Part shown: positions 17,586-47,002 of the stretch, one piece after another
How positions within the stretch are numbered: position 1 is the first letter of the stretch
How the letters are laid out: each line of letters begins with the position of its first letter
NCBI GenBank assembly: GCA_964016885.1
Contig: OZ024741.1
Span: forward strand, 91,946,001 to 92,010,000
Reading direction: 5' to 3'
From: Eledone cirrhosa
Taxonomy: Eukaryota
DNA: 64,000 bases
The notes under the pieces: generated by a model
Database searches by the model: none
What the model was told of the DNA's origin: nothing
What the model saw: the letters and a program-made list of their open reading frames with translations, nothing else
Translations under genes and position numbers: made by a program

Positions 17586-19168
17586 TCTATACATATATAT
17601 AAAACTGAAATTGTGTGTGTGTGTGCGTGTGTGTGTGTGTGTGTGTGTGTGTGTGTGTGTGTGTGTGTGTGTGTGTGTGCGTGCGTGCGTGCGTGTGTGT
17701 GTGTGTGTGTGTGTGTGTGTGTGTGTGTGTGTGTGTGTGTGTGTGTGTGTGTGTGTGTGTGTGTGTGTGTGTGTGTGTGTGTGTCCTAATTTTTGCAAAG
17801 TCTATACAAATCCACATTTCTACTCCGATTGACTTCAAACTTGCATTTATATATTCCTTGCGGTCTAAAGATATTAACTGCAGCTTTTATTTTTCAATTT
17901 TCTGTTGTTAAAGGGGTGTTAGACGCCGGTTATCGATCTCTCTGTCTTTCTTAGTCTGTCTTTTTAGATAGATACATAGCTATAACGTCGCACCCTTATA
18001 ATATCTGTCTGTATGTCTGGCTGTCTGTATGTCTGGCTGTCTGTATTACGACATTATGACAAACATTGCTCTCATTGATCACGTATTATCTTCGCTATTT
18101 TCCGTTCATTGCCAGGGAACGTCTTCACGAACCAAAGTATCGTCTTCCTGTTTTCCTTCAGTTGCAACGTTTTTCGAAATATTTACTTCTGCGTTCACAG
18201 ATTGATTTTTTTAGTTTCAGAAGATCCCGTTAAGGGTGAAAGCACACGTTGTAAGCAATATCAATGTTACTACTGCTACATAGGACTCCCATTACCACTG
18301 AACTTTCACCTTTGCGTTCTGCATTTCCATCCGCAGGCCAACATGGAATGGTCTTCATAGTAGTCAGTTTATTGAGGGGGAAACAGAAGGGTCTAGAATT
18401 TGCCGTCAAAAAATCCATTGACAATAACGAAAACCGCTAGCATCAACGCAGAATGATACATTGTAGGTCGCTTTAAGCCGTCTTTTATTAATCAAAAACT
18501 TCTTGCCAACAAACATTAACCATTTGTGCGCCATTCATCTAACTGTAGACCAACAAATACCACCTAAACGGAGCGTTGACAAGAACGATGGCGAATGAAT
18601 CTTCGAGATAAGCAGTTTCCTCCCGAGCTGTTAGTTCACGCGAGATTCTCTGCTACACCTTTTCATAATAATATCGAACAACGTACTGCTGGTCACTCCT
18701 TCCTCCAAAAGCCGTACAAAGCGGACATGTGCATCGGGCAGATGGATCGGTTGCAAATCTACACCAGGCCTAAGCGAGAAATTCGTAAGGAGCTGCACCG
18801 AGAGGGATAGTGAGAAAGAGTAACTTAGTGGAAAGTACTTGAGGTAAGTAGCCTACGCCTTACTGCTATGACACTGGAACCTTCTGCCAACTTAACCTGT
18901 GACGTGACTTTCTCTTTCTCATTTACTCCAATAGGCCAAAACTGATTGGAAACGCCGGGGGACAACTGTCACAGAAGGAGTATGAAAAGAAGGGGCTCAA
19001 CAATATTTCTATGAACAATGCACGTAGACAGCTAAACTGTACTTTCAACAAGTTCCCTGTCGGTATATTTTCGTGAGTTTTTAACAGGCACCCACAAATA
19101 AACGTTTCTCATTGGAGGTTCTATTACCAATGTTCTTACACCCGTGCAACGCCGGGATACACTGCTAG
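17586..19168 (+). mobile_element. Non-autonomous Helitron
   Basis: A|TC 5' end followed by GT microsatellite. 3' hairpin CCCGTGCAACGCCGGG then CTAG|T at 19165-19169. Confidence 0.75.
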
Positions 19169-19865
19169 TATATATATATATATATATATATATATATATA
19201 TATATATATATATGCAAACATACATATATACATACAAACATACACGTCTGTACGTATTGCGAGAGAAGTCTATATCAGTAGAATGTATGTATATATATAT
19301 ATATATATATATATATATATATATATATATATATATATATATAATGGTGCCATCAAAATGCAAACATGTCCGTGCAGCCACAGACTCATCAGCTATACCA
19401 CGATTTAGACGTGTTTTTGTGTAGAAACTGTTAAGTCAATGTCTTAATATAAATATATTCAACGTCTACATTAAATGTTGATCTCTTTTCTCTTTCATTT
19501 GTACCCACAGCTGCCTATATACATATATGTGTGTGTGTGTGTGTGTGTGTGTGTGTGCGTGTGTGCGTATATACACACACGTACATATATATACACACAC
19601 AGTGGCGGACTGGGTCTAAACATTTTGGTTGCCAGGAGATGAAGGGGGCCCACCTACATATAGAATGCTATCATTTAATTTTTATAATGAATAAATAACA
19701 TTTTCGAAAAATACATAAGTGGACACAAAACAGTGAAATCAAATTTTTGCGAAAAAATATCTTCCCTTCTCCAATAAAAAAATATTATGTATTTTGCGAA
19801 ATCCAGAGACTTTCAATAATGACCAGAAGTCGACCCTAAATATTACTAATAGCTCTAGGAAAGCC

Positions 19866-20226
19866 ATGAACGACACCACATCTTTTTAATTTTGATTTTG
19901 AAAGTAGATTTATAATTATCAAGTTTCATTATGCTTTTGTAGCTGTCTCGGTGGCCTAGCTGGAGGAATCATAGACGATGGTGATCCTGGTCTGAAGTTC
20001 GATCCTAGTAGGAATCCGGGTAAACCTTTTCATTTTTTTTTCTCTGAGTTGTAAAATAAAAAGTGAAAGAGGTTACACGTACCGCTTGACCAAGATTGAA
20101 CCCAAGGTCAGGATCTCCACCGTCTCAGGTAGCTAGCACAGAGACAACTACGAAAATGTTATGAAAATTCATACTTATAAACCTACTTTCAAAATGTTCA
20201 AAACAAAGTGTTGTGGTGTCGTTCAT
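19866..20226. mobile_element. Foldback MITE with two inverted tRNA-like heads
   Basis: Terminal IR ATGAACGACACCACA/TGTGGTGTCGTTCAT. Arms remain similar inward. Box A 19952-19963, box B 19997-20005, inverse box B about 20093-20102. Confidence 0.6.
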
Positions 20227-20575
20227 ATCTTAATGTTATTGCTCCTACTTAATGTCGGCTTCTAAATCGTTTGGGTGTTTCATATACTACATCCACGTTT
20301 TGTTTCACATCAGTCTAGACTATATTTTAACCTGTAATCCATGTTTCATTTCTGTTGCACCTCATTCCCCCCTCTCCCCCCCCTCTCCCCCCCCCTCTCT
20401 CTCTCTCCCCCTCTCTCTCTCTCTCTCTCTCTCTCTCTCTCTGTGATATTTGAATCTAGTATGATTTGGGCTTACCTCATTCCTATGTATATGTTTTTGC
20501 ATGTCAGATTCAAACTTATATATATATATATATATATATATATATATATATATATATATATATATATATATATAT

Positions 20576-45954: not shown

Positions 45955-46700
45955 ATTTTATCAAATGATTATATGGACATACTTCATCGTATATTGCTCT
46001 GATTGTTGATTAATTAATTAATTAATTCGTCATTGAGCGCCATCGTGAATTGGTCGCCAAAATCACACATATATATATATATATATCCATGACTTTGTCT
46101 AGTTTATGTATATGTAAATCTTTATATTTGATAATCTCCCATATGGTTGAGATGCAATTTAGGCAGTATTAGGCTGCGCTTTCTAGCAACCAGCCCACTC
46201 GCCGTAAGGCACTAATCACATTCTTTCTGACTTGACCACTAGCTTCGTCACAGTTCTTAGCCATTTTGAATTCGTTTCTGGCGGGGATTATTTAAGAAAA
46301 ATCTTCGTCCAATTGAGTTTGTTTCCTGATGATTTCGAAACTCGTGAATTCATCCTTGATCGGATATTTCCAAAAAGCGAATGAAACCTCTTGGGGTAGA
46401 AACATAATTTTGGTATGCTTATACACATTTTTTCTTCTAACTTTGATTTTGTACCTAATTGTGTATGGTTGACGATATATCTAGTCGATTTCCACGTGTT
46501 ATTAGAAATGCTGGGTAAATATTCTATGGCTGTTGATCGCGGATAGATAGCTATCGTTGATTTATCTATTGTTTCTTCATAGATGCCTTTTAATCTTATA
46601 GCCCTGTTTAATTGTTTTTTGTGTGGTTGATTATGCTGATTGGGAGAGGAAATAATGTATATATTTTATCAAATAATTCTATGGACATACTTTATCGTAT
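45955..46700 (+). mobile_element. Retrozyme-like unit, family B' (one monomer of about 710 nt plus about 40-nt terminal repeat)
   Basis: TATTTTATCAAAT..ATGGACATACTT.ATCGTAT at both ends; colinear with family B; HHR 46320-46404. Confidence 0.8.
46320..46404 (+). ncRNA. Hammerhead ribozyme with extended stem II
   Basis: tgtttc CTGATGA t ttcg...cgaa t GAAA cctcttgggg TA| gaaaca. Confidence 0.75.
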
Positions 46701-46765
46701 ATATATATATATACATGGGAGGTCTATGTGTATGTATATATATATATATATATATATATATATAT

Positions 46766-46816
46766 AGTTTCAGAAGATCCCGTTAAGGGTGAAAGCAGTG
46801 ATTCTTTGCTTAAACT
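46766..46816 (+). ncRNA. Hammerhead-like motif, U4A core variant (siblings 42990-43040 minus, 18213-18244 plus, partial)
   Basis: agttt CAGAAGA t ccc gttaa ggg t GAAA gca gtgattctt tgc TT| aaact. Confidence 0.6.
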
Positions 46817-47002
46817 TTAATGTTATTTTAATAAATATATATAGGTCAAATACCAATCCTACTAGCATCTACAAACTGACCAATGAGAATTAAGAGTATT
46901 CCTGCTGACAACATTAAATTATTGCTAACAAGCTCATGTGTACCAAGGCTCTGATACCATCAACACTATAAACACAGAGCTGGCATATCTAAGAACTGAC
47001 TA

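Follow-up and report, generated by a model that had tools for sequence, protein, structure and literature searches.

Fixed A at hammerhead core position 4 and conservation of the remaining fold in a large lineage of Penelope-like retrotransposons with intact open reading frames

A hammerhead-shaped motif that occurs three times in a 64,000-nt stretch of Eledone cirrhosa DNA (contig OZ024741.1, positions 91,946,001 to 92,010,000 of the forward strand; hereafter the window) belongs to a large lineage of Penelope-like retrotransposons (PLEs) with intact open reading frames (ORFs), in which the U of hammerhead core position 4 is fixed as A (U4A, or A4) and the remainder of the fold is conserved. 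The motif is the hammerhead-like fold of the pseudo-long terminal repeat (pLTR) of this abundant Hydra-like PLE. An earlier reading of the same DNA from its letters, here called the sequence-only reading, spanned positions 17586..46835 of the window and took the motif for a PLE ribozyme that Helitrons had captured and were spreading; that story has turned out to be minor, and the PLE lineage is the real finding. Catalysis by the hammerhead of the element PAc is dispensable for insertion in vitro, and yet PLEs of these clades are said to carry the motif universally. As to why PLEs keep hammerheads at all, the A4 lineage is a natural experiment: it has autonomous copies that are intact, its insertions number tens of thousands, its core carries a change expected to disable cleavage, and its fold nevertheless seems selected, while a canonical sibling family of the same genome provides a control. 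If the fold is dead, it has a non-catalytic job; if A4 cuts, the hammerhead consensus widens, and CUGANGA descriptors and standard searches miss such motifs.

The copies of the motif and the related elements beside them in the window are as follows.

46766-46816, + strand: A4 motif with the complete type I layout (descriptor scan).
46766..46838, + strand: 5′-truncated PLE retrocopy in (TA)n that contains this motif (blastn); its layout from -5 to +69 recurs in L433 and other loci.
42990-43040, - strand: A4 motif, whole, with two changes in stem II, whose pairs are U-G, C-A and C-G.
18213-18244, + strand: A4 motif that ends after the 5′ arm of stem III, so that no three-way junction is possible.
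44348..45868, + strand: sibling PLE, family B, with a canonical CUGAGGA minimal hammerhead at 45800-45837 (tblastn, 31-39% amino acid identity to the ORF of the A4 family).

All three CAGAAGA motifs were found again in the window letters and by the descriptor scan where the sequence-only reading had placed them, with A at position 4 in each of the three, a mutated stem II in the copy at 42990 and a truncation in that at 18213. Since all belong to one repeat family, they are not independent of one another. The complete copy at 46766-46816 has three stems of 5, 3 and 4 bp round the core in type I order: stem I AGTTT/AAACT, the CAGAAGA core, a U.U mismatch, stem II CCC/GGG, GAAA, stem III GCA/TGC and the UU triplet, with a predicted scissile bond at 46811/46812. 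The strict A4 descriptor gave a match in one of 30 block-shuffled windows. This copy had been described as a free module next to (TA)n; its location stands, but it is an ordinary 5′-truncated PLE retrocopy running from -5 to +69. The canonical hammerhead at 45800-45837 was likewise confirmed, together with the likeness drawn to it, as the U.U mismatch, the CC/GG of stem II and the UU triplet are common to both motifs. Rfam returned no hammerhead among 150 of its 208 whole-window matches, nor on the A4 motif or the canonical 45800 motif alone; because the canonical motif is missed as well, Rfam is uninformative here.

In the 3.0-Gb genome the motif sits inside a longer repeat, one copy of which was traced to a locus, L091, where two pLTRs flank an ORF. 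Seven of the 12 loci fetched for long open frames contain intact ORFs of 705-710 amino acids that are 96.6-98.4% alike, and the young family is about 2.5% diverged. Three full-length copies among these seven (L175, L177 and L178) have A4 in both pLTRs, which bears out the suggested derivation of the motif from a PLE. The full unit is about 3.2 kb long with a tail of 88 nt, and the motif precedes the ATG by 200 nt. In the translation of a 709-amino-acid ORF, reverse transcriptase motifs and C-terminal motifs of a GIY-YIG-type endonuclease (EN) were identified by eye. The ORF protein has no direct match in Pfam or PDB; it has 481 homologs, one of which, the full-length P0091 (39% identical), clears the Pfam cut-off for GIY-YIG. 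As in the description of Hydra-clade PLEs (Craig et al., 2021; PMC8557442, in the text available), there is a single ORF with DKT, a CxCX5C linker, CxxC, CxH and the C-terminal EN domain, insertion is into (TA)n, and pLTRs, an optional tail and inverted 5′-truncated copies are present, so that the features of an EN-bearing (EN+) PLE are all found. It differs from that description in having RWR where the Hydra clade has RWK, in the length of the unit and of the tail, and in A4, canonical hammerheads being universal in the Hydra clade according to the same text. Because its pLTR core has A4, the element is called Hydra-like and is not filed as a Hydra-clade member, the likeness being one of described motifs, not of a tree. 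The words of the A4 motif were not found in the supplement of PMC8557442 as searched.

The state of position 4 was then counted genome-wide, as the sequence-only reading had proposed, and A4 proved to be the state of the family, not a local mutation. The exact A4 word occurs in 24,052 copies and the U4 word in 803. With stem I intact, position 4 is U in 80 copies and C or G in 122, while position 7 is non-A in 204, and on these counts the U4 copies are background mutation. Among 30 U4 matches examined, 25 lie at fold-back junctions where the inverted arm provides the CTG, four have stem I and one is of another kind. Roughly 700 fold-back junctions in the genome (e.g., L031-L050) recreate the canonical CUGAAGA by accident in a long perfect hairpin. 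A sample of 100 copies was also drawn by a word downstream of the motif, being the first 100 of its 46,575 genomic matches, on contig C1 within the first 22 Mb; 77 of these reach position 4, which is A in 75, the other two being unresolved. The canonical core C3 U4 G5 A6 N7 G8 A9 is thus absent from the family beyond background, and the motif is therefore filed not as a hammerhead ribozyme but as a hammerhead-shaped core variant of a Hydra-like PLE.

The canonical comparison is family B, whose hammerhead pattern has 8,619 genomic matches, roughly 1,000 of them family-A fold-backs. As this sibling has a canonical CUGANGA and a similar stem II, A4 is most likely the derived state. Its stem III is a 2-bp palindromic one, against 4 bp in the A4 family. 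An outgroup with U4 and the same long stem III was not found, 12 hand-picked divergent CTG matches being mostly fold-backs, and a candidate U4/A17 sublineage in the oldest subfamily comprises only three matches (one U4, one A4 and one truncated). A search for other A4 minimal hammerhead families, made with one shape, gave 145 matches against 119 in the control and hence no signal. No relatives outside this genome were found in metagenome contigs or viral contigs; two further organisms, B and C, contain near-identical DNA at low depth, which is uninformative on deeper conservation.

A4 is fixed across three subfamilies, two of which are older. It is found in 54 of 62 matches of subfamily A′ (loop II GUAAUA) and in 77 of the 89 listed matches of subfamily A″ (loop II GCUUA), 63 of these having U at N7. 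The 12 CTG matches of A″ comprise eight at rearranged junctions, three with intact stem I and one unclear; neither C nor G occurs at position 4 in this subfamily, which amounts to a slight excess of U. When 30 older copies, chosen only by a downstream word, were compared with the young natural copy L180 as a yardstick, the commonest letter was the same in all 35 core and stem columns and different in 20 of the 130 columns of loops and flanks (one-sided p=0.006). The comparison of A″ with 67 ORF-linked copies came out alike, with no difference in the 36 structural columns, a difference at N7, four in the 14 loop columns and 20 in the 146 flank columns; it left out three loci, two that have family-A flanks and a third whose flanks were unusable. 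The only core change between subfamilies is therefore at N7, the free position of the hammerhead, and C3, G5, A6, G8, A9, G12-A15.1 and UU are unchanged; G12 A13 A14, the A15.1-U16.1 pair and H17 are present as GAAA ... UU in all subfamilies. Because changes fall in loops, flanks and N7 and leave the stems and all other core positions as they were, the fold appears to be under selection, and it has likely been kept by selection despite a substitution expected to cripple cleavage.

Might the motif instead be a neutral relic, killed once by U4A in a lineage too young for the rest to have drifted? The low divergence of the young family and the lack of compensatory changes in the stems would fit such a history, as would the spread of Naiad PLEs without canonical hammerheads (PMC8557442, in its text). 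However, between subfamilies about 15% of flank and loop columns differ and no core or stem column does, and the older copies share only 72-79% nucleotide identity with the young ORF, although part of this distance is decay. We regard a neutral relic as improbable.

What the fold is kept for is a separate question. We lean towards a weak or dead hammerhead fold maintained as a structural element of the PLE RNA, a view drawn from comparison of copies. It is proposed that U4A would weaken the U-turn, so that the fold would serve mainly the folding of the RNA or the binding of the element's own protein instead of cutting. In the texts available, every single mutant of the CUGA turn in a complete scan cleaves poorly (PMC9901934), the A6/N7 phosphate is a contact of U4 (Perreault et al., 2011; PMC3088659), and hammerhead mutants of PAc left its insertion in vitro unaffected (Frangieh et al., 2024; PMC11167929). 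Among the 53 5′ junctions of the 100-copy sample that fall between -100 and +46 there is no pile-up at the predicted cut, four lying at +37 to +46 round it and two of them within 2 nt. Junctions do concentrate round the 5′ foot of stem I, where 20 of the 53 fall between -10 and +4 (p=1e-7); more than half of these 20 are fold-backs, explicable by short internal complementarities, and the canonical sibling has similar junctions. When contigs of the unlabelled runs X1 and X4-X6 were aligned to the element, no splice or circle joint was seen at the motif. Contig depth in run X4 rises about six- to eightfold at the motif and tail (L091:2240-2390, L180:4248-4391), and about twofold in X1; this is not readable as expression, and the jump in X4 may or may not reflect a short transcript.

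Several points weigh against the reading as a structural element. The copy L180 served as the yardstick in the comparison of older copies, and the changes private to it raise the flank count slightly; in the A″ comparison, 18 of the 36 structural columns are set by the search pattern itself. The stems are invariant between subfamilies, with no compensatory pairs, and, since they do not covary, their conservation could equally be that of a DNA-level or protein-recognition sequence. The minimum-energy prediction is not a hammerhead (-4.8 versus -8.5 kcal/mol; z about 0), and the canonical 45800 motif fails likewise. Cleaved RNA need not be copied, so that the missing junctions at the cut site are weak evidence. 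In addition, a catalytic core and UH triplet otherwise unchanged, with the sole core change at N7, are the pattern of a working ribozyme, the PAc hammerhead cleaves only with its protein (PMC11167929), and in a viroid a U4C variant is functional in vivo (PMC3088659), both as given in the text of those papers.

The last three points are also what recommends a different idea: that the A4 fold is a working core variant that would cleave slowly or only when bound by protein, A4 throttling a ribozyme that would otherwise cut as a monomer. The constancy of the core over three subfamilies, in which N7 and both loops changed, would then reflect catalysis, PAc would be a precedent for protein-assisted cleavage, the viroid would show that a change at U4 is tolerated, and the 4-bp stem III, compared with the 2-bp palindromic one of family B, would favour activity of a monomer. 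Nevertheless, the low activity of the CUGA-turn mutants and the phosphate contact of U4 speak against it, as do the lack of an evident tertiary loop-loop contact and of a junction peak at the cut site, and a single core change would fall on N7 by chance in about one case of 13, so that the N7 signal alone is weak. We consider such a core variant doubtful, and it seems slightly more doubtful still that a natural A4 hammerhead goes on cleaving, probably aided by the retroelement protein, with A4 as a throttle on a monomer-competent ribozyme.

Published hammerheads resemble this motif in part. The PLE ones (Cervera and De la Pena, 2014; PMC4209133, as far as its text goes) are also of type I, lie in the pLTR, have a short stem I and show no evident loop-loop contact; the core variant reported there is U3-A8, not A4, and their stem III is minimal and palindromic, whereas the present motif has a 4-bp stem III with a 9-nt loop and a stem II that opens with U.U. 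Natural core variants altered at a single core position are known, as is the U10.1-U11.1 mismatch, but the text of PMC3088659 names U4C, U3-A8, A6C, insertions and U15.1-A16.1 and no U4A, and none of the variants in it is described as fixed in tens of thousands of copies. Of known kinds, too, are hammerheads in the pLTRs of PLEs, tails, introns and inverted copies, and the nesting of transposons in Helitrons. A study of small PLE hammerhead variants by Lunse and colleagues from 2016 may describe position-4 variants. Neither a natural U4A hammerhead nor this PLE family was found described in the literature text, figures and that study being outside the scope of the search.

As for propagation, PLE copies end in (TA)n at +69 or +157, are 5′-truncated or inverted, and some are intron-less; in the 100-copy sample, the 3′ end lies between +67 and +69 in 62 copies and between +151 and +157 in 36. 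This can be compared with the Poseidon element PAc of a lizard, whose text (PMC11167929) ties the two-ended tail pattern to two internal starts of reverse transcription; two 3′ ends defining a tail, AT-rich targets and a hammerhead upstream of the reverse-transcription starts are common to both, whereas the PAc hammerhead is protein-assisted and overlaps the ORF start, unlike the A4 motif with its distance from the ATG. Copies would thus be made by target-primed reverse transcription from two internal sites downstream of an uncut motif, as in PAc. The element has an intron as follows.

L180:3398-4143: PLE intron of about 713-745 nt in the PLE 3′ untranslated region, with two alternative donors and one acceptor; further loci that bear on it are L245-L256, L061, L145 and L148.

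PLEs are noted for intron retention. Here, however, 94 exact copies are without the GT-AG intron of about 713 nt, and others pair the second donor with the same acceptor; such intron-less copies are strong evidence that PLE copies have passed through spliced RNA.

The presence of an intron raises the question of whether A4 could make a 3′ splice site, TTTCAG, at which splicing would restore or remodel the core. Every subfamily has a pyrimidine tract and YAG ahead of stem I, the intron is genuine, and in Drosophila virilis the Penelope intron ends at helix I (PMC4209133, in its text). The acceptor of the spliced retrocopies, however, lies about 100 nt upstream of C3 (one donor is represented by 94 exact copies), and neither of the two known donor exons ends in CTG. 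Splicing of the two known donors to either AG of the motif was searched for as a pattern, and none of the five matches, judged from the matched strings, was a donor-exon junction. The splicing idea was rejected and is scarcely credible.

The Helitrons and their PLE cargo in the window are the following.

17586..19168, + strand: non-autonomous Helitron H1, with a TC start after A, a subterminal hairpin and a CTAG end before T (from the sequence).
18068..18244, + strand: PLE pLTR fragment in H1 (blastn to a near-full-length natural PLE copy, 86% over 177 nt).
42805..43737, - strand: non-autonomous Helitron H2, with a TC start after A, a hairpin and a CTAG end before T (from the sequence and from related loci with the same ends).
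42967..43090, - strand: PLE pLTR fragment in H2, about -52 to +66 relative to C3 (blastn).
42834..42883, + strand: 50 nt of the PLE tail in inverted orientation, just ahead of the 3′ hairpin of H2 (98% to the PLE tail).
43161..43442, - strand: 3′ end of a secondary long interspersed nuclear element (LINE) in the H2 microsatellite (from translation, with no Pfam match; not in the eight related H2 loci listed).

The LINE piece is presumably an RTE-like C-terminus. That H1 and H2 are two related non-autonomous Helitrons, as the sequence-only reading held, agrees with their ends, their insertion between A and T and the lack of any visible target duplication. Descent from a RepHel-coding element is seen not in H1 or H2 but in the module-bearing relative L446, whose helicase remnant has no Pfam match and has as its best PDB match the Helitron transposase Helraiser (7lcc, E 5e-6), followed by Pif1 helicases. 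Non-autonomous Helitrons with foreign fragments share the ends, the lack of target duplication and the RepHel remnants in relatives; the cargo here differs in being a PLE pLTR piece, and such cargo is not described in the literature text found on Helitrons together with hammerheads.

That the Helitrons spread the piece has a sound part, since the junction between microsatellite and PLE in H2 recurs in 1,358 exact genomic copies and the PLE-truncation junction of H1 in 32; the H1 3′ end was present at one of 11 other loci checked. They are not its main carrier or the origin of the variant: in the 100-copy sample, chosen without the motif, 13 copies are Helitron-borne (95% confidence interval 7-21%) and 87 lie outside Helitrons, the very result by which the sequence-only reading had agreed to be judged. 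An automatic screen had called 12 of them, from which flank inspection removed L425 and L473 and to which it added L439, L474 and L479. Nor does the piece look like a selective capture. Helitron-borne pieces begin at -145 to -52, stop within a few bases of the +69 end of the PLE and continue into (TA)n, and the sister Helitrons L116 and L121 have the same 5′ 300 nt and the microsatellite without the PLE piece; the simplest history would be insertion of a PLE into a Helitron microsatellite. A 5′-truncated PLE copy would have landed there and later been trimmed, and Helitron descendants would have amplified it passively, to about one copy in eight. As regards the Helitrons, one transposon nested in another is nothing out of the ordinary.

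A Helitron that captured the ribozyme module, became its main vehicle and possibly uses it is highly improbable. The amplified subfamilies and the RepHel remnants of L446 are in its favour, but the Helitron-borne fraction is small, A4 is found in the autonomous PLE and in older subfamilies, and H1 amplifies a truncated motif unable to fold, which argues against any use by the Helitron. Helitrons transpose as DNA, so that an RNA motif has no evident role for them. We are highly confident of the PLE origin of the motif together with the passenger role of the Helitrons.

Other hammerheads and repeats occur in the window. In one repeat family, three hammerhead copies have a U3-A8 core and a sister copy that shares flanks with them has C3-G8, an alternation within one family that is known covariation; its copies, found by the descriptor scan, are given first.

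25014-25058, - strand; 25424-25468, + strand; 36840-36887, - strand; 35997-36038, + strand: copies of the U3-A8/C3-G8 family.
16140, - strand: candidate hammerhead whose core is of the U3-A8 type; it lies downstream of the remnant of a PLE endonuclease at 16533-16946.
50882-52890, - strand; 22163-22841, - strand; 11616-12053, + strand: remnants of at least three more PLE families (30-52% amino acid identity to the A4 family), downstream of which no clear hammerhead was seen.
17458-17482 and about 44018-44045, + strand: two decayed hammerhead-like 3′ ends of a further repeat, TTGATGA/TTGAAGGA ... GTCCGAAA.
47130-47380: short element built of inverted repeats, with CCCCGACGGCAGAG as its arms and TTTCGAC words inside; it is present in two copies between (TA)n runs.

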